A program made the translations under genes and the position numbers. From positions 119,568 to 183,567 of IMG/VR virus record IMGVR_UViG_3300021256_000057: a stretch of 64,000 nt of DNA; one strand, written 5' to 3'. How positions within the stretch are numbered: the stretch's first letter is position 1; each line of letters begins with the position of its first letter. Below, piece after piece: positions 1 to 22,940 of the stretch. The DNA comes from a virus (Duplodnaviria; Caudoviricetes). The notes under the pieces were generated by a model, which ran no database searches, was not told the origin of the DNA, and saw nothing but the letters and a program-made list of their open reading frames with translations.

Positions 1-792
1 TGCCGATATCACAAGAGATGAGCAGTCATAATCTGGACCCCATCGTGAGCCCTGGTCATATCCGTGAGAATCATCGTTTGCTATATTGATAGCCCACTGT
101 ACTGCATACTCTACTTTTGTTATCTGTGTAACAGGTGGATAGTAGGCTACACCAGATGTAGGATTGCTACCACCAGCAGTAGCACCATAGTCATAATCAA
201 GATCTACGTTCCCATGTATGCCTGGAATAGTCCCTCTCTCTGAATACTGCCACATGCAGTATGTTCCTTTTTTATAGTAGGAAGGAGAACTGCCTCCGAA
301 CTGTGCGACCCACACCTTGTATCCAGTCAATAGATCATTTGAAAAGAAATCGTTCAGTGCAGATGCGTTAGAATATAAGCCAAGGTTTCTAACACCAGAC
401 ATTTTCATCGTATTGAAAAACGCCCTTGTATTATTTGAGACTCTATCTGCACCAAGGCTAATTAGTTTGTGAGGGTTCGGATTTTTCCCTCCAACATCCT
501 CCACATCATAGAAGATAGGATACTCAAATGTTTTACCTCGAATCGCATTTAAGCAGGCGGATGCTTCTTTCACGCATCCTGCCTCATTTGATGCTTGACA
601 GAACCAATATATACCGCATGGTATATGATACTGTTTACAACTCGCGTATGAGGCTTCAAATTTAGGGTCAGTAGATGTACCATACCCAGCTTGTATGATC
701 ACAAATTGAACTTTTCCAGACGAAACGACCTGTTGCCAGTTGATAGGTCTATCATAATTGTGTTTAGAGATATCTATACCCATCAATGCCAT
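1..792 (-). CDS. GH25 muramidase + NlpC/P60 (Amidase_5-like) lysin, runs off window edge
   Basis: Manual translation from ATG at 792: MALMGIDISKHN..IIQAGYG..IFYDVED..GNVDLD, then ANDDSHGYDQGSRWGPDYDCSS. Absent from ORF track because open at the edge. Confidence 0.85.
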   Translation of the reverse strand, partial: MALMGIDISKHNYDRPINWQQVVSSGKVQFVIIQAGYGTSTDPKFEASYASCKQYHIPCGIYWFCQASNEAGCVKEASACLNAIRGKTFEYPIFYDVEDVGGKNPNPHKLISLGADRVSNNTRAFFNTMKMSGVRNLGLYSNASALNDFFSNDLLTGYKVWVAQFGGSSPSYYKKGTYCMWQYSERGTIPGIHGNVDLDYDYGATAGGSNPTSGVAYYPPVTQITKVEYAVQWAINIANDDSHGYDQGSRWGPDYDCSSLVISA

Positions 793-13940: not shown

Positions 13941-14225
13941 CTATCGTTTTGCCTTCCGTTGTGCATTAGATTCAAGACGTTTCTTTCTTTCATCTACCTC
14001 TCTGGTAAACGATTCAACGTACTTTTTTCGTATGAATATGGGTTGCTGATACAACCACTCTGCTGAGATAGCACCCTCGGAAGCTCTAGCGATGAACATT
14101 ACCTCATCGGTGATATTCTCATACAGTTTTTGCCTTACCTCGTGCAGGCTTTTCATTTCCCCCTGCACTTCTATCATGTTTCCAGGCTCTGAGATCTCCC
14201 ACGGTCGGACGAAAGAAACGATCAT
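13941..14225 (-). CDS. tail assembly chaperone C-terminal part (T-like)
   Basis: Overlaps 14119..14937 and precedes TMP; true start uncertain. Confidence 0.5.
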   Translation of the reverse strand: MIVSFVRPWEISEPGNMIEVQGEMKSLHEVRQKLYENITDEVMFIARASEGAISAEWLYQQPIFIRKKYVESFTREVDERKKRLESNAQRKAKR

Positions 14226-14937
14226 CTGTCAGAGCGATGAAACTTGCACGATTAGAATGGCATATAGGACACTGTGTAACACCAGCGAGCTTTAGACCAT
14301 AGTTAGTCTTGGAGCTGGCCGTATCTCTCAATGCGATGTAGTCAGCAGATGATAGATGATTCTGGATGTACATCTTCACTTCAAACGGTGTCATGCCGTT
14401 CTTTGTGCCAATAGATCGAATGCTATAGCACAATCTGGCCAGCTCCCTATTAACAGAACCATTCTCACGCTTGAACACATCATCATTATACGCAGCAAGC
14501 ACTTCCTTCATGGTAAGGAGCTGTAGTGTAATATCACCATCAAAGTCGATAAGATCATCTCTACTGATAACGATCTCATTCTTAAAGCCCTCTGGAAGTG
14601 GGACACACTCGATCGTATTCAGATTTACTTGATACTCACCATCTGATGATCTCTGACCACAATCCCGACAAAGAATAAGATTTGTCGTATAATATGGACC
14701 GTAGTTCAAGATACGCAGGCACCGGCAGAGCCAATAATAATCTATCTCCAGCAATTGGTTGCAGTCGATCTTCTCCTCAATAGCAGATGGTAGGATCTTT
14801 TCGATCATTGTCTTGTCGAAGTCCTCACTGCCTACATAGTCCAGCTCCGAGATAGTAGGCAAGCTATGAAGTGTGAGTTGATCTGGGATAGAAGTATACA
14901 GACCCTTACCAAGCAATTCGATCTTCTCTGAAATCAT
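14119..14937 (-). CDS. baseplate hub assembly / tail chaperone (T4 gp26-like)
   Basis: LLEIDYYWLCRCLRILNYG, two CxxC pairs, terminal FF; late motif upstream. Confidence 0.65.
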   Translation of the reverse strand: MISEKIELLGKGLYTSIPDQLTLHSLPTISELDYVGSEDFDKTMIEKILPSAIEEKIDCNQLLEIDYYWLCRCLRILNYGPYYTTNLILCRDCGQRSSDGEYQVNLNTIECVPLPEGFKNEIVISRDDLIDFDGDITLQLLTMKEVLAAYNDDVFKRENGSVNRELARLCYSIRSIGTKNGMTPFEVKMYIQNHLSSADYIALRDTASSKTNYGLKLAGVTQCPICHSNRASFIALTDDRFFRPTVGDLRAWKHDRSAGGNEKPARGKAKTV

Positions 14938-14971
14938 GATGACACTCTCCTTAAACGGTTTTTAGGGATAT

Positions 14972-15014
14972 TAAAAAAAATATCAGTGAGTATGTCTTTT
15001 TACTCACTGATATA
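14972..15014 (-). terminator. intrinsic terminator overlapping AACCTTATATA motif
   Basis: ATATCAGTGAGTA/TACTCACTGATAT stem plus T-run. Confidence 0.65.
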
Positions 15015-15041
15015 TAAGGTTATTGATGCGGATGCATTCTT

Positions 15042-16781
15042 TTACCCTACTTCGCGCTCCCCGACGATCAAACGCTGCTCGCGGTCATAGACTTCATCGA
15101 ACTCCTCCATGATCGGATCATACTGGATGTCGGATAAACGATCAGCCGTCTGCACTCCGACCCTTCCGTCATCATTGCGAAACAGAGAGATGAAACGGAT
15201 ATCCATTGGATGCTCATCAGCCTCATGATCCTGATAGACTGCCGCCATATTGAATGCCTGCTGCACAAAATAGCTATGTGTCGTCACAAACACCTGTACA
15301 CCGATCCTGGAGAGGTTGATCAATGCCTTGGCGACCGGGTAGATCATCTTGGGATTCATATTAGCCTCCAGCTCATCCCAAAACAGGATCGAGTTGTTCG
15401 CCAGTCCACCGGACATTACGAGATACATCAGTGTAGCCAGCTTACGGTATCCCTCAGAGACAAGGCTCATCTCAAAATTGCCCTCGCCATGGATCTTCAG
15501 GAAAAACTGATCGTTATCTTGTGAGATGTTTCCCTTGATGATGTCAGAAAATAGCGTAAGGACCGAGTTTTGCTCCTCGCTATCACGTCCCTTCTGTAAT
15601 GGCCATAATAGCAGCTTTGCAAGATCATAATACGTTTCATCGAATCCGATCTCGTACCGCTCATACAGCGAACAAAAAGCACCAGCAGTGGAAATGATCT
15701 CCTTGGGCGGGATATAGACCGGGGTAAACTCCGTTTCCACTCCGTGATCCAACTGGTAGTCTAGATGGTTGATCTGCTTATTCGAGAACGAAAGCCTCAC
15801 ATCGGCATCATTGTCAAATACAGTATGGATACTGGCTCTTGTTGCTCCTGTGCGCGTCACAAGTCGATGAAGGGCATGATTGCTAGGCTTAAAAACATTT
15901 ATCAGCTTTTTAACAAACGCACCTTCAACCGCCGCCTTGGTTTGATCAGCGTGCAGTTCACGTCCGAGTTTTGACAACACAGCAGCCTGCGTATACAGCA
16001 GCTTCATCAACGCTGTTTTACCTGTGCTATTCTCCCCAAATATGACGTTCACATCTTTAGAGAGATCAATATTCAATTCCTGAAACAGCATAAAGTTCTG
16101 GATATCCACATTCTTGATCTTCATCGATATGGGCATGTCATGTGTATGTGCAGGAGTCTGCTCAGTCTTGCCGTAGCCGTTCAGCCCCCTGCCCTTGATG
16201 ATGGCCGGGAAATCCTTATTGCAGATATCCAGATCCACATTGCCGTTGATGCCTGCAACCTTGCCATTCTTAGAATGGTGCCAAAGGCCGTAAGCACCGC
16301 TGTAATTTGTCTCATCGACCCAGTTCGCCAGCCAGATGGTGTAGCGGCTCTTGATGTCATCGGAGGTGTGTGTGGTCAGCGAAGAAGCCGAGCCGTGCAG
16401 ACCGACAAAATAGCCTTCCGCTTCCACCCTTTCAAGGAACGCCCGCATGATCGCCGACACCTTCTCCTTGCCGAGAGCAAACTGCTTTTGTTCCTCCACA
16501 GCATAGTACACAGGGAACTCGAACTGTTTTCCCTTGATGACAGACAGGAAAACATCCGCCTCCAATCGTGCCTCGTCCTCACTCATGGCGTAGGAATACC
16601 AGTATGCACCGACCAGAACGCCAGCCGCCTTTGCGCCGAAGTAGTTCTGCTCGAAACACTCGTCCTTCTGCGATGCAAGTCTGCCGTACCCTGCATGCAG
16701 GATGGCATAATCAATGCCGTCAGCCTTGACATTACCCCAGTCAATATCGCCGTTGTGTACGCTCACAACAATACCCTTCAT
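15042..16781 (-). CDS. fusion of degenerate GH25 lysozyme and ABC/AAA_21-type ATPase (ORF open to 17003 through an M15-peptidase remnant)
   Basis: GGAGG SD before ATG 16781; GH25 fold; from 16124 Walker A GENSTGKT, signature VSEGYRK, Walker B LFWDE, TTHS; higher GC than flanks. Confidence 0.75.
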   Translation of the reverse strand: MKGIVVSVHNGDIDWGNVKADGIDYAILHAGYGRLASQKDECFEQNYFGAKAAGVLVGAYWYSYAMSEDEARLEADVFLSVIKGKQFEFPVYYAVEEQKQFALGKEKVSAIMRAFLERVEAEGYFVGLHGSASSLTTHTSDDIKSRYTIWLANWVDETNYSGAYGLWHHSKNGKVAGINGNVDLDICNKDFPAIIKGRGLNGYGKTEQTPAHTHDMPISMKIKNVDIQNFMLFQELNIDLSKDVNVIFGENSTGKTALMKLLYTQAAVLSKLGRELHADQTKAAVEGAFVKKLINVFKPSNHALHRLVTRTGATRASIHTVFDNDADVRLSFSNKQINHLDYQLDHGVETEFTPVYIPPKEIISTAGAFCSLYERYEIGFDETYYDLAKLLLWPLQKGRDSEEQNSVLTLFSDIIKGNISQDNDQFFLKIHGEGNFEMSLVSEGYRKLATLMYLVMSGGLANNSILFWDELEANMNPKMIYPVAKALINLSRIGVQVFVTTHSYFVQQAFNMAAVYQDHEADEHPMDIRFISLFRNDDGRVGVQTADRLSDIQYDPIMEEFDEVYDREQRLIVGEREVG

Positions 16782-16931
16782 ATCCTCGCCTCCAAAATAC
16801 TTGTAAAAATCATCGGTCACGGTGTTGTTACCGTGGACTTCATCGCCATACCACTTGCCGTTCGGGCGCACATCGACATGAGTGTACTGATATGCCGCCG
16901 TGATGTTTGCGATACCCGTGAAGCCAATATC

Positions 16932-17003
16932 TTGTGCAACTTGCACAGTGCGGTTTTTATTTTCCCTAGGGGAAATACAATACAGCATGTGCAAGTTGCA
17001 CAA
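16932..17003. repeat. ~70-bp imperfect palindrome centred on CCCTAGGG (copy 1)
   Basis: Perfect 16-bp outer arms TTGTGCAACTTGCACA/TGTGCAAGTTGCACAA; core TATTTTCCCTAGGGGAAATA. Confidence 0.85.
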
Positions 17004-17006
17004 ATA

Positions 17007-17702
17007 TCACACAAATGGAAATGAGATTTGGGAGCTGTCCGCATCCCACCCATACATGATATCACCGCCGATGAAGTTCCGTCTTGTCTGTCTACATGCA
17101 TCGAACACTGAGTATCCACCGCTTGCTGGGTCGCAAACATAGTCTCCTTCATTGGTAACAGCAAGGATAAGTTGCTTTTGCAGCTCTATGGGCTTAGAAT
17201 GAGGATGTACTTTTATTACCTTTTCATCCCATACATCGGGGATGTTATGAAGAGTCCATGTAGACTTCGCCAAGATGGGCTTCTTCTGGATAACAATTAG
17301 ATATTCGCACTTGCGCCGTGTCCGATAGCCCATGCCAATCTTTTGCTTATTCCATGTAATGAGGTCAACACATTGCATATCGGGCAGCTTCTTGAACCAC
17401 TCTTGTACGCCCTCTACCAGATGGAACTTGTCCACCCAGAGGAACAGATATCCGCTCGGCGCAAGGATTCGATTGATACCATGAAGAAACTCGATGATCG
17501 TATCATTATCCATCTGCTCTAAGTCACAGCGAGCTTTACCCCTCTGTTCTCCCTCATTACCATAGGATAGTTTATCAAGAACACCGCGGTACTGAGGATC
17601 AAAGAATACTGCCTTGATGCAGGAATCCTCGATCTCTCCGAGCAGCTCTCGGCCATCACATTTATTCTGGTGGTTCACTTTGAATTTGTCAGATCTAAGC
17701 AT
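17007..17702 (-). CDS. DNA N6-A/N4-C methyltransferase (beta class)
   Basis: DPQY catalytic motif, HPHSKP, VCDPASGGYS SAM motif. Confidence 0.85.
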   Translation of the reverse strand: MLRSDKFKVNHQNKCDGRELLGEIEDSCIKAVFFDPQYRGVLDKLSYGNEGEQRGKARCDLEQMDNDTIIEFLHGINRILAPSGYLFLWVDKFHLVEGVQEWFKKLPDMQCVDLITWNKQKIGMGYRTRRKCEYLIVIQKKPILAKSTWTLHNIPDVWDEKVIKVHPHSKPIELQKQLILAVTNEGDYVCDPASGGYSVFDACRQTRRNFIGGDIMYGWDADSSQISFPFV

Positions 17703-17710
17703 AAATAAAA

Positions 17711-17780
17711 ACAGCTCCCTTACTCCAAAATACTATCACTTATTATAACGAGTGGTAGTATCATGAAATAAGGGAGCTGT
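17711..17780 (-). promoter_or_regulatory. hairpin over the MTase RBS with CGTTATAAT in its loop
   Basis: ACAGCTCCCTTA/TAAGGGAGCTGT outer stem, inner stem, loop CGTTATAATA. Confidence 0.6.
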
Positions 17781-17794
17781 CCGATGTGTATGTA

Positions 17795-18277
17795 TCACAT
17801 ATCTGTCTCGTAGTAAAACTGGTCAAGAGCAGGGTTTCCAGTCAGCTTCATGATCCCATAATGATGCAACGGCACAAAATCATATCTGTTTCCAGATAGA
17901 TTAAAGTATTTGATGCAGTTCTCACGGAACTTTGCATTTTGGCAAAGCGCTTCGCTACAAATGATCTCATAGCTCTGAGTGCGGATATTGTAGATAACAC
18001 GGCCACGCTCTATAGACTTGTATCCATTATTGATGATATTCTGCCGCTCAGAAGGAGATTCAATATACTTAGCTACGGCTGATCTCCATAGGTTAAGATG
18101 GTTCTTCTCATTGGAGTATTGTAGATAACCGTTGGATTCTACGGCATTATCAAGATCTGTTGAGTAGTCCCAGAACTCACCGTGATCTGTATACCACCAG
18201 ATAGATACAAGCCCCGTTTTGTATCCGCTTGTAATTGGGGTCTTTTTAACTCTTGTTCTGATAAGGATCTTAGCCAT
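17795..18277 (-). CDS. hypothetical protein
   Basis: 160 aa; TTGACT-17-TATAAT at 18346-18374. Confidence 0.7.
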   Translation of the reverse strand: MAKILIRTRVKKTPITSGYKTGLVSIWWYTDHGEFWDYSTDLDNAVESNGYLQYSNEKNHLNLWRSAVAKYIESPSERQNIINNGYKSIERGRVIYNIRTQSYEIICSEALCQNAKFRENCIKYFNLSGNRYDFVPLHHYGIMKLTGNPALDQFYYETDM

Positions 18278-18428
18278 GTTCTCATCTCCTATCGATTCAA
18301 TGCTTTGTTTTACAACATCAATTCGGAGCTGTACTCCCTACTATTATTATACCATATCTACGAGATGAAGTCAATAATTATTATAGATATAGCGGTCATA
18401 CTTTTGCATATGACCGCTATTTGATGTG

Positions 18429-18674
18429 TTATTCGTCGTTCCGCTCGTCCCACTTACGGAAGTCCCACATACGAAACAGATACGCAAGGGAGCTGGCCAA
18501 TTCAGATGTGCTTAGAGTTTCAACGATTTCATGATCGACATCCTCCTGCCCATATGTGTCACAGGCCAGCTCGTAGGATTCATCGACTTCATTATTCTCT
18601 ACTACCCATCCATAGCTCTCAGCGGCAGTAATACGGCGAGCTGGCTCCTTATATTTTGTACATGATCTGTGCAT
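18429..18674 (-). CDS. small acidic protein, possibly 5-prime truncated
   Basis: Start lies inside palindrome arm; RRITAA motif. Confidence 0.5.
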   Translation of the reverse strand: MHRSCTKYKEPARRITAAESYGWVVENNEVDESYELACDTYGQEDVDHEIVETLSTSELASSLAYLFRMWDFRKWDERNDE

Positions 18675-20570: not shown

Positions 20571-21116
20571 TCAGCGGAAGTCAGATGGCTTCATGTAAAT
20601 GGCCTGGGAGATAATAAATGGTACTTGTACCTTTACTACATCTCCGCCTGTCTGATTCATGCTGCCGTTGTCAAGAGCCCCGATCCATGTACCGGGGCAG
20701 CGGATGACGTCTCTTACATTCCACTGGCCGTCATACTTGATAAAGTATACCTGCTTCATGTACTGAGACGGAAGTCCCATCTTCTGGGTCTCTGGGTCGT
20801 ATACGAGCTTTCTCCATGCCCGTAGGTTCTCTAGGACGTTAGGTTCGCAGTAGCAGTTGAGTGTCCACGTTACATCACCATACGATACCTTGGATGGGAA
20901 CTTGATAAGTCCGTTTCCATAGTGTACGGTAATACTATCCTGCTGTTCCTGAATTGAACCTACTTCATCGGTCGATAGTGTCAGGAGTTCGTTGAACTCG
21001 GTCGGGAGAGATCCGTCCATGTTGTAGACGCGAACTTCAAAGTTATTTGTGGTCAGAGGTACGAAATTATCGATGCCAAGCATATGATTCGTCCCCATCT
21101 GCAGTGGAGTAAACAT
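20571..21116 (-). CDS. tail tube protein (gp19-like)
   Basis: Size and motifs (WRKLVYDPETQKMGLPSQY, CPGTWIG); AACCTTATATA upstream. Confidence 0.75.
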   Translation of the reverse strand: MFTPLQMGTNHMLGIDNFVPLTTNNFEVRVYNMDGSLPTEFNELLTLSTDEVGSIQEQQDSITVHYGNGLIKFPSKVSYGDVTWTLNCYCEPNVLENLRAWRKLVYDPETQKMGLPSQYMKQVYFIKYDGQWNVRDVIRCPGTWIGALDNGSMNQTGGDVVKVQVPFIISQAIYMKPSDFR

Positions 21117-21231
21117 CCGATCATTTCCTTTCAATAAGATTTTTATTTTTGAGTGCATGAGGGAATGTTTATGGTTTTTCTCCCTCTACTTATATATAAG
21201 GTTTTTTGTTTTTCAATTTTTTTTGATGTAA

Positions 21232-21278: not shown

Positions 21279-22940
21279 TTACTTTATCCAGACGTAAACT
21301 CCTTGACCACAATCATATACTGGTAGCCATCCATGGGAGAGCATCAGTTCTTCATTATCTACTCCTTTGCCATAGTCTGTATTAAACAGTTGATCAAATC
21401 CTCGTCTCAGCAAGAGGTTGTTTGTTATCTTTTCCGACCCATGAGACCAGACTTTTGTTGGTGCTGTGTCATGATGATGTGTGAAGCCTAGTTTTGTGTA
21501 CACATCTCCTGAGAATTTTGCTTTGTCACAGTATGAGATGATCGATATAGGGTCGTGGTCTTTGAGGAAGTGCTTGAATAGTCGTTCTGCTCCACCTACT
21601 ACATAGTATCCTGTCTTGGTACAAAGGCGCAATAGCTCCCATTGGTAGTTTTTGTTGTATCGTGGTAGACCGAAGGTCATGATCTGCATTAGCCCATCCT
21701 GGTAGTACAGGCCATAGCAAACTGTTTGACCGCGGCAGTAACCTTGTAGATGGTAGTTAGATTCAAACTCTTTGATAACTGAGGCGTCTGAGATCTCTTT
21801 TACGCTGCAAGCTCTTGCCTGTATCCTTTGCTTGTCTAATAGGAGATTTACAATGTCAAACTGATTGTCCCAGTCGAAGATGTGGATGCATCTGTAACCA
21901 GCATCGGTCGCTACATTTGTTTTGTCTAAATGGTACTTAGGTGAGATGCCTTTGTGATTCCAATGATTTCCGATAGTATTGTGTGTATAAGTTGGATCGA
22001 TCTCGATAACAACATTCTTGCTTGGGATGAGCACGTCATATCTCTTTGTGCCGATAACATGCTCGAACTCGCAATGGATTCCATATGCCTCAAGTATCCT
22101 TGCGAATTTCCTGTTTGCTGTAGAGACAACAAAATGTCCGTTGTTCATCAGGTATTCATCTGTCAGAACAAAGTACGGAACACCATATCGAGCTAGGGTA
22201 GTCTGCTTCATCTTCTCTGCGAACTCTGGTACATGAACAGCCCGTTTTACTCCGTATCTTCTGATCGTGGTATCCCGAGACTTCAAAGCAAACTTCTTCT
22301 TGTACTCAGTACCGTATCTAGCGACTTTAGTAGCAACTCCCTTCTCTGCAATCTCTCTAAGCTGCATCGGGTTTGGAACTCCGTACTTAGCAATATTTGT
22401 GGCGCGGATACGTTCAACTATCTCAGGCACTCTTGATGCATTATCCACACCGTACTTTTCTTGCATGGTTGCTTTAACTTTGTCTGCAAGAGCTGGAGAT
22501 TGCAATGTATAAGATGCACCATATCTATCTTCCATTGTCTTACGACCAGCAGAGTAAACATCTGGATTTCCAATAGCCCAGTCTGTTCCAAACTTCTGTT
22601 GATTAGTACGGATAGCTCTCTGCTTGATTGCATCAGACTGCAATGGGGATTCTACCCCATAGGTGCAAAGCATGGATTCTTTGAAGTGCTCCTTTACTGA
22701 TTCGTTTTGCATAGGATGTTCTACACCATACTTCTCAATGTTCTGCTTCTTCGTAAATGCTCTGCTGCACTCTCGTGAGCAGAAGACGTTACGATCACTA
22801 GGACGTTTGAATGGTATTGGTGTACCGCAATTCTTACAAGGTCGGTAGTGCTGTTTGTCGCAGATCTTTTGAGTTTTGCAGGAAGTTACAAATTGTTCAC
22901 CACATATCTTACAAACTCTCTTGTACTCAAAGTCCATCAC
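21279..22940 (-). CDS. Hef-like free-standing homing endonuclease
   Basis: N-terminal CxxC fingers, repeated KYGV/RYGV units, YDVLI..EID nuclease core, GNAT-like C-terminus; TTGCTT-17-TATAAT upstream. Confidence 0.65.
   Translation of the reverse strand: MMDFEYKRVCKICGEQFVTSCKTQKICDKQHYRPCKNCGTPIPFKRPSDRNVFCSRECSRAFTKKQNIEKYGVEHPMQNESVKEHFKESMLCTYGVESPLQSDAIKQRAIRTNQQKFGTDWAIGNPDVYSAGRKTMEDRYGASYTLQSPALADKVKATMQEKYGVDNASRVPEIVERIRATNIAKYGVPNPMQLREIAEKGVATKVARYGTEYKKKFALKSRDTTIRRYGVKRAVHVPEFAEKMKQTTLARYGVPYFVLTDEYLMNNGHFVVSTANRKFARILEAYGIHCEFEHVIGTKRYDVLIPSKNVVIEIDPTYTHNTIGNHWNHKGISPKYHLDKTNVATDAGYRCIHIFDWDNQFDIVNLLLDKQRIQARACSVKEISDASVIKEFESNYHLQGYCRGQTVCYGLYYQDGLMQIMTFGLPRYNKNYQWELLRLCTKTGYYVVGGAERLFKHFLKDHDPISIISYCDKAKFSGDVYTKLGFTHHHDTAPTKVWSHGSEKITNNLLLRRGFDQLFNTDYGKGVDNEELMLSHGWLPVYDCGQGVYVWIK

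Follow-up and report, generated by a model that had tools for sequence, protein, structure and literature searches.

How a bacteriophage comes to carry a lysozyme domain with replaced catalytic acids, joined in frame to the ATPase subunit of a bacterial defence system, and which part of the joined protein is being kept, are the questions raised by an open reading frame (ORF) at positions 15042..17003 on the minus strand of the DNA analysed here. The window, that is the whole stretch of 64,000 nucleotides (nt), is the final 64 kb of the IMG/VR virus record IMGVR_UViG_3300021256_000057, which is 183,567 bp long, is rated complete by CheckV and belongs to an animal-gut phage of ~184 kb. The origin and anatomy of this gene, meaning its two donors, its breakpoints, the deletion series that produced it and the reality of its junction, are settled by the comparisons below. 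Its function is a matter of weighing, and the explanation we favour, of a real and recent fusion in which the ATPase is the retained cargo and a decoy against the host's HEC-02 defence system, is as a whole given an even chance.

The chimeric gene and its parts

The ORF encodes 653 amino acids (aa) from a TTG codon and is open throughout. Three parts follow one another in it: the C-terminal ~50 residues of an M15_3 peptidase, a GH25 domain in its entirety and an ABC ATPase of full length. This is what the initial annotation of this region had proposed, and the end which that annotation gave to the insert, 16931, falls just inside the M15-like tail. Pfam matches Glyco_hydro_25 (PF01183) to aa 80-252 over profile positions 3-180 of 180 (E 3e-22, above the curated cut-off) and AAA_15, AAA_21 and SMC_N at aa 294-592. 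The parts are listed below in the direction of translation; L numbers denote the sister phages and bacterial contigs that were compared.

16935..17006 (-): spacer from the methylase stop to the endolysin remnant, with two 13-bp palindromes and weak possible starts (TTG 17003, ATG 16988) that have no Shine-Dalgarno sequence
16782..16934 (-): M15 tail of the endolysin remnant, the last ~50 residues of Peptidase_M15_3 (aa 24-74), with the first ~105 residues missing on alignment to full-length M15_3-GH25 endolysins
16789..16793 (-): candidate ribosome-binding site GGAGG, 7 nt before ATG 16781 (M75), as read from the sequence
16149..16781 (-): GH25 domain, complete but catalytically disabled (aa 75-285), with the V79 codon at 16767-16769, the A168 codon at 16500-16502, E170 kept and 11 more changes at invariant positions
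16125..16166 (-): remains of a Pro/Thr linker and the deletion scar, which lies between 16127 and 16126 in a junction alignment of the window, L014, L021, L016, L020, L001, L019 and the host contig L017
15045..16124 (-): orphan HEC-02A ABC ATPase (aa 294-653), with Walker A at 16014-16037, FWDELE (Walker B region) at 15366-15383 and the stop at 15042-15044

Support for the junction comes from contigs of two samples and from several assemblies rather than from raw reads. A contig of 50,567 nt from the probable source run covers 14900-16358 without a difference, and in a second sample of that study a fused allele that is 12 nt shorter is found on a contig of 22,747 nt; both span the region around 16130-16170, across which the initial annotation had asked for reads. 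A 648-aa protein already on record, encoded by a separate 183,489-bp ENA contig, is identical to the window ORF from M6, and a 644-aa fused variant, P0248, derives from contigs of 90-105 kb; the fused forms P0247 and P0248 were seen only in the 90% cluster of P0002, the first protein search having listed none. In a different study, a bovine-gut run yielded a contig of 2,506 nt that likewise extends across the ATPase and GH25 parts, and in which 172 other letters stand in place of 194 nt at the junction.

The insert was described from the outset as being of higher GC, and this holds: the GC fraction is 0.49 for the chimeric ORF and 0.53 for its GH25 part, compared to 0.42 for the window and 0.42-0.43 for the flanks. 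The heptamer GGAGCTG/CAGCTCC occurs 44 times in the window, where ~6 are expected, and 41 of these sites lie within 800-21247; the only 2.2-kb stretch of that interval without one, 14849-17030, contains the chimera, an absence that fits a foreign origin.

Where translation begins bears on which protein is made. The GGAGG at 16789..16793 is the most plausible ribosome-binding site, and would give a GH25-ATPase product of 579 aa, although the same letters are also coding (GGED) in all endolysin homologues. The upstream possible start at ATG 16988 is absent from L020. The spacer in which it lies holds perfect palindromes, GTGCAA[C/G]TTGCAC, at 16934-16946 and 16989-17001, 55 nt apart and reverse-complementary to each other, and the 5' breakpoint of endolysin homology falls at the second of them. 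The palindromes were considered as a conserved operator and rejected, being degenerate and only partly kept in L016 and L020.

Two donors and a series of deletions

Both halves have traceable donors, and both breakpoints could be placed. The N-terminal half resembles M15_3+GH25 proteins of 391-408 aa, hundreds of which were found in a search of 5.8 billion proteins, at 80-85% identity over aa 22-285. Domain order and the start of the Pro/Thr linker are shared with these endolysins (P0003, P0007, P0085); P0007 and P0003 each adjoin a holin where a prophage-like region ends, and a Ruminococcus or Oscillospiraceae name is attached to some of these proteins. By alignment the window copy is without the first ~105 and the last ~35-40 residues, and this half is a doubly truncated copy of a Ruminococcus/Oscillospiraceae prophage M15_3-GH25 endolysin. 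Apart from its truncation it differs from the prophage enzymes in carrying D79V, D168A and 11 other changes at invariant positions, and in its location outside a lysis cassette. A search of the phage record for Peptidase_M15_3 (PF08291) gave no match, and a complete domain with the metal-binding part is absent from the chimera.

The C-terminal half comes from a defence operon. Residues 294-653 match the PADLOC profile HEC-02A (PDLC04213) end to end, at E 7.7e-104 over positions 1-333 of 337, and P0241, a protein of an 'uncultured Ruminococcus sp.' in the 90% cluster of the best match, is 96% identical to the phage ATPase in protein and ~97% in DNA. On the bacterial contigs L017 and L018 the P0241 gene overlaps a 200-aa DUF6661 gene whose product matches HEC-02B at 8e-43, forming a complete operon, and wherever more distant ATPase homologues (~50% identity) occur in cellular contigs, a DUF6661 gene always accompanies them. 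HEC-02 consists of an ABC ATPase and a NERD-like PD-(D/E)xK nuclease, and Payne et al. found both genes to be necessary for defence (bioRxiv 10.1101/2024.01.29.577857).

That nuclease is what the phage lacks. The ORFs downstream of the ATPase have no PADLOC or Pfam match and the gene is followed by a terminator-like hairpin and a structural gene; DUF6661/HEC-02B (PF20366) has no match in the 183,567-bp record, which is a weak negative as a control search also returned no match; and Pfam reports no TOPRIM nuclease domain in the chimeric ORF or its neighbours. Homology to the host stops ~20 nt into the nuclease ORF, on a short match that makes this end tentative, and the phage hairpin then begins. 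The description of a defence-type ATPase without its partner is therefore upheld, and since both HEC-02 genes are required for defence, the phage locus is not a HEC-02 system; in the window lineage its ATPase is also fused to an endolysin remnant. Profiles for GajA, Old and AriA give only partial matches to the ABC core, with E values of 1e-11 to 1e-22. PARIS (PMC11464382) likewise pairs a sensor ABC ATPase, AriA, with a separate effector nuclease, the TOPRIM protein AriB, but the likeness (AriA at E 1e-22) is limited to the ABC core, the HEC-02 effector is NERD-like and not TOPRIM, and the phage ATPase is not a PARIS member.

The ATPase was also called intact, which is correct as to its full length and its Walker motifs, GENSTGKT (Walker A) and the Walker B Asp-Glu being present; it needs qualifying for the window allele, which alone has Leu for a family-invariant Pro after Walker B (WDEPE to WDELE, P252L). 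The last 5-25 residues, past 'EQRLI' (15042-15070 in the window), vary in length and sequence by small insertions and deletions here and in L001, L016, L019, L020 and the host L017, and it is at this variable 3' end that the host gene overlaps the nuclease gene. A 7-nt gap there was considered as a lesion and dropped, because the tail after 'EQRLI' differs in nearly all alleles, the ending 'GEREVG' being common to the window, L014 and L021. In the host, the first ~40 nt of HEC-02A and its upstream spacer occur twice, 337 nt apart (L017:347-720, L018:1308-1680), which looks like a small insertion with duplication.

The route from two genes to one is displayed by the sister phages. Seven phage alleles share the order methylase, GH25 remnant where present, ATPase, a 272-aa gene and a gene of 1304-1307 aa. 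L021 has the same disabled GH25 allele as the window, with V79, A168 and the other 11 changes, as a separate ORF of 293 aa whose stop lies 31 nt short of the ATPase start; the spacer between them is of host origin and includes the Shine-Dalgarno sequence GAAAGGA. The window equals L021 minus 73 nt, lost between 'CCCATAT' and 'CGATG', and those 73 nt carried the stop codon, the host-derived spacer and the Shine-Dalgarno sequence of the ATPase. L014 is without 85 nt relative to L021, 12 more than the window, and is also fused; both deletion events removed the stop and the Shine-Dalgarno sequence and kept the frame. In L016, L015, L020 and L001 a different GH25 allele ends in 'LNGT' with a stop 22 nt before the ATPase, leaving two ORFs, and in L019 the GH25 part is gone, the ATPase is kept and ~24 nt of M15-like sequence are left between methylase and ATPase. 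Host homology upstream of the ATPase is longest in L021 (~75 nt) and shorter in L019 (~62 nt); L016, L020 and L001 each retain 17 nt, and in the window almost none is left. Given this series, the chimera is one state among nested deletions, a recent and lineage-specific fusion of adjacent accessory genes confined to the window/L014 sub-lineage. The new chimera envisaged by the initial annotation thus gives way to a 73-nt deletion between neighbours that some sisters keep apart and of which L019 has only the ATPase, and its suggestion of a peptidoglycan-binding ATPase accordingly finds little or no support.

The acids of the GIDVS and DxE motifs are catalytic in GH25 enzymes. At the corresponding places the window has V79 (GIVVS) and A168 (AVEE), where 119/119 close M15_3-GH25 homologues have Asp and which align to the motif acids of the solved enzymes 4kru and 1jfx; with both Asp residues replaced and only E170 retained, the domain does not have the acids of an active muramidase. 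The loss was noticed at the outset, as was the contrast with the GH25 domain at 1..792, which keeps both acids (GIDIS, DVE). That protein is one of two others in the phage with a complete GH25 domain, at G000:C1:68477-69001 and 119784-120344 (window 217-777) in ORFs of 383 aa and 763 aa, which makes the remnant a third and surplus copy.

The changes are not limited to the active site. An alignment of 119 endolysins has 186 columns with conservation of 95% or more, and at these the window group deviates 13-14 times, L016 10 times and L020 8 times, compared to a mean of 1.2 and a maximum of 5 for the endolysins themselves. Of the 13 window substitutions at invariant GH25 positions, the first is at residue 79 and the last at residue 272, so that they cover the whole domain; they include R103, Y203, Q242 and Y262, which are invariant residues of the substrate-groove type. 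The initial annotation had taken scattered substitutions as the sign of neutral decay, and their spread is indeed decay-like, but the DVEE motif has been altered in three lineages, by D168A in the window group, E170V in L016 and E171A in L020, a recurrence not expected from simple decay. Where L016 and L020 differ, the changes are gathered in two tracts; outside these the two differ at only three positions, two of which are E170V and E171A in the otherwise invariant motif. A rough, post hoc estimate puts the chance of two isolated changes on the three DVEE acids at ~1e-4, and selection against activity of the truncated enzyme is possible. The bovine-gut allele, on our own reading, looks DVEE-intact at the listed motif places.

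Rates of change (dN/dS, omega) in the remnant need to be read with recombination in mind. Three-taxon estimates give ~0.12 on the window and L016 branches and 0.04-0.11 on endolysin branches, which would fit a long functional past followed by a short relaxed period. Between the window and L016, dS is 0.67 in the GH25 part and 0.10 in the flanking ATPase, with backbone identity of 95-97%, and recombination tracts shared with functional endolysins contain most of the differences between alleles. Other endolysin genes have thus recombined with the remnant and patched it repeatedly, and this accounts for the low omega among close alleles, whose differences are mostly synonymous (0.15-0.22); dN/dS in this part cannot separate residual selection from gene conversion. 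Overall the GH25 piece looks like a decaying passenger.

What is kept, and why

The history of the gene is as follows. One of the fused genes is the leftover of a prophage M15_3-GH25 endolysin that lost both of its ends and its catalytic aspartates. The other is HEC-02A, taken over from a Ruminococcus-like genome together with ~75 nt that precede it there and severed ~20 nt inside the nuclease gene, so that HEC-02B (NERD-like, DUF6661) was left behind at capture. The deletion in the window lineage then removed the remnant's stop and the ATPase's own ribosome-binding site, and probably the only way in which the ATPase can now be made is as the C-terminal part of a GH25-ATPase protein whose translation most likely starts at M75. 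The ATPase would be the part kept by selection and the GH25 piece a passenger that now serves as a translational leader. Without its nuclease, the ATPase may interfere with host HEC-02: as a decoy of dominant-negative or antitoxin-like type it could soak up, or mis-assemble with, either the nuclease or the ATPase of the host, much as viral orphan cas genes block CRISPR complexes. The decoy idea of the initial annotation is thereby made concrete, with a Ruminococcus HEC-02 operon as the donor and both of its genes needed for defence, while the inhibition itself would follow by analogy. Katz et al. described virus-encoded orphan cas genes that act as anti-CRISPRs (bioRxiv 10.1101/2023.06.24.545427); the phage ATPase is similarly a lone, near-native virus copy of one host immune subunit, ~97% identical in nucleotides to host HEC-02A, and differs in that the target would be another kind of immune system, an ABC ATPase with a nuclease.

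Several results favour this reading: the phage gene is nearly identical to that of the host, the nuclease was cleanly excluded, the ATPase persists while its neighbour erodes, the deletions kept the frame and an orphan methylase lies alongside. In 7/7 phage alleles the ATPase ORF is intact, each with Walker A, the Walker B Asp-Glu and the H-loop unchanged. Pairwise dN/dS is 0.14-0.24, and changes private to single phage alleles (41 nonsynonymous, 26 synonymous) give an omega of ~0.43, with p = 0.001 for omega <1, although allele counts are small and recombination blurs every dN/dS figure. Constraint on the phage ATPase is real but relaxed.

Other results weigh against it. Phage and host alleles are about equidistant, which makes gene conversion from host copies likely, and the low pairwise dN/dS may be partly inherited by that route. 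The private omega of ~0.43 indicates weaker constraint than the 0.15 of the 272-aa chaperone gene or the 0.04 of the methylase. Most phage alleles have 1-3 private changes at family-invariant residues (P252L, P139Q, T231I, G179E and others), compared to three of the four host alleles without any, and these hits fit early decay as well as a binding-only role. The chance that two deletion events would both keep the frame is ~1 in 9, HEC-02A may restrain or activate HEC-02B so that an extra ATPase might not inhibit the system, and the mostly synonymous differences among GH25 alleles leave room for a residual non-catalytic role of that part. The strongest form of the idea, in which the lone HEC-02A, by itself or as a dead-lysozyme fusion, is an active counter-defence protein that sequesters or poisons the host nuclease complex and in which loss of the GH25 motifs was itself selected, is put forward as tentative and is less likely than not.

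The serious rival is that neither half does anything, both being hitch-hikers that illegitimate recombination brought into a hypervariable slot and that are about to be lost again by deletion, with the open frame and the fusion owed to recency. The nested deletions of the GH25 piece and its complete loss in L019 are what this would lead one to see, as are the 8-14 invariant-position changes in phage GH25 alleles, the relaxed private changes of the ATPase with altered invariant residues such as P252L, and the unrelated genes which a distant relative, L009, carries in the same slot between tail-tube and chaperone genes. It accounts poorly for an ATPase ORF that stays open in every allele, with its nucleotide-binding motifs untouched and omega significantly below 1 (p = 0.001), while the neighbour is whittled away, or for the preserved frame across two deletions that took the Shine-Dalgarno sequence, or for the fact that of the operon's genes the ATPase alone was retained, its two ends lying no more than tens of nt from the breakpoints. 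On this evidence we regard it as doubtful but deserving of serious attention. That the ATPase instead forms part of a phage-borne defence or exclusion module, sensing competing phages and acting through host HEC-02B or an unrecognised phage nuclease, is unlikely. Its motifs are intact, a second AAA_21 protein and a homing endonuclease occur elsewhere in the phage, and ABC-ATPase systems such as PARIS often reside on phages and satellites (PMC11464382); against this, HEC-02A alone gave no defence in the published test (bioRxiv 10.1101/2024.01.29.577857), the 183-kb record yielded no DUF6661 gene, weak as that negative is, and a terminator-like hairpin and structural genes directly follow the ATPase.

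Least probable, and very unlikely in our judgement, is a protein built for a purpose, in which the dead GH25 has been retained to bind peptidoglycan or a ligand and so to provide the ATPase with a new location or input. An open GH25 ORF in five alleles, the synonymous excess among close alleles (omega 0.15-0.22) and the motif changes D168A, E170V and E171A, which could reflect selection for an inactive binder, would all suit such a role. The fusion is found only in the window and L014, however, with two ORFs in L021, L016, L020 and L001 and no GH25 part in L019; changes at R103, Y203, Q242 and Y262 argue against retained sugar binding, and the low omega is explained by the recombination tracts shared with functional endolysins.

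The strongest form of the idea, active counter-defence by the lone HEC-02A, would if true provide the first 'stolen subunit' inhibitor of an ABC-ATPase/nuclease defence system. If the phage copy inhibits HEC-02, the strategy of viral orphan immune subunits would extend from CRISPR to the large ABC-ATPase/nuclease class. In that case the question of how HEC-02A controls its nuclease could be approached with natural reagents, namely the split, the fused and the P252L alleles and the host operon that matches them. The analysis defines the operon that served as donor, the breakpoints at either end of the captured segment and seven natural alleles of a nuclease-less phage copy of a validated defence sensor. 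The fusion itself is an ordinary evolutionary accident, each step of which is displayed by sister phages, and the locus clearly illustrates how nested deletions and gene conversion can erode a remnant next to a gene that is retained.

Megablast of 14000-18500 against GenBank phages gave no match, an IMG/VR scan with the ATPase as query gave no relative and a literature search on DUF6661 found nothing. Two GenBank 'Bacteriophage sp.' records, H1 and H2, were considered as additional orphan ATPases and set aside, H1 having a DUF6661 partner beside an integrase and H2 looking bacterial.

The accessory slot

Bounded by the tail-tube gene on one side and by the probable chaperone and tape-measure genes on the other, the accessory slot that holds the chimera is the one in which L009, found with a chaperone query, carries unrelated genes. 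Its surroundings are as follows.

21279-22940 (-): homing/HNH endonuclease of 553 aa (PHROG 3339, E 6e-88), directly upstream of the tail-tube gene and near the variable slot
20571-21158: tail tube gene (PHROG 4542, E 2e-10)
18346..18374 (-): promoter-like site, TTGACT, 17 nt, TG-TATAAT (11/12), from a consensus scan only
17007..17702 (-): orphan N6/N4 DNA methyltransferase of 231 aa (Pfam N6_N4_Mtase 1e-14; PADLOC MTase_II 1e-96)
14980..15013 (-): intrinsic-terminator-like hairpin that closes the cassette, with a 13-bp stem and a T run, kept in L001, L014 and L015
14119..14937 (-): 272-aa gene, the first backbone gene past the insert, which overlaps a 94-aa ORF and precedes the 1307-aa gene

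The site at 18374-18346 is a possible start of an accessory cassette made up of orf160, the methylase and the chimera, and the methyltransferase is directly upstream in every sister phage (L014, L016, L019, L020 and L021). With its foreign GC, a promoter-like site upstream, a terminator-like hairpin downstream and a position in a variable slot among structural genes, the cassette resembles phage morons, and differs from them in pairing an orphan methylase with a captured defence subunit. A second AAA_21-type ATPase is encoded in a 604-aa ORF at G000:C1:6625-6867, far from this locus.

The 272-aa and 94-aa ORFs have no Pfam or PHROG match, and the 272-aa product is, by its position only, a probable tail assembly chaperone. 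Together these overlapping ORFs (13941-14937, minus strand) stand upstream of the 1307-aa gene in a layout like that of a frameshifting tail-chaperone pair. The homing/HNH endonuclease at the other side of the slot may promote local recombination.

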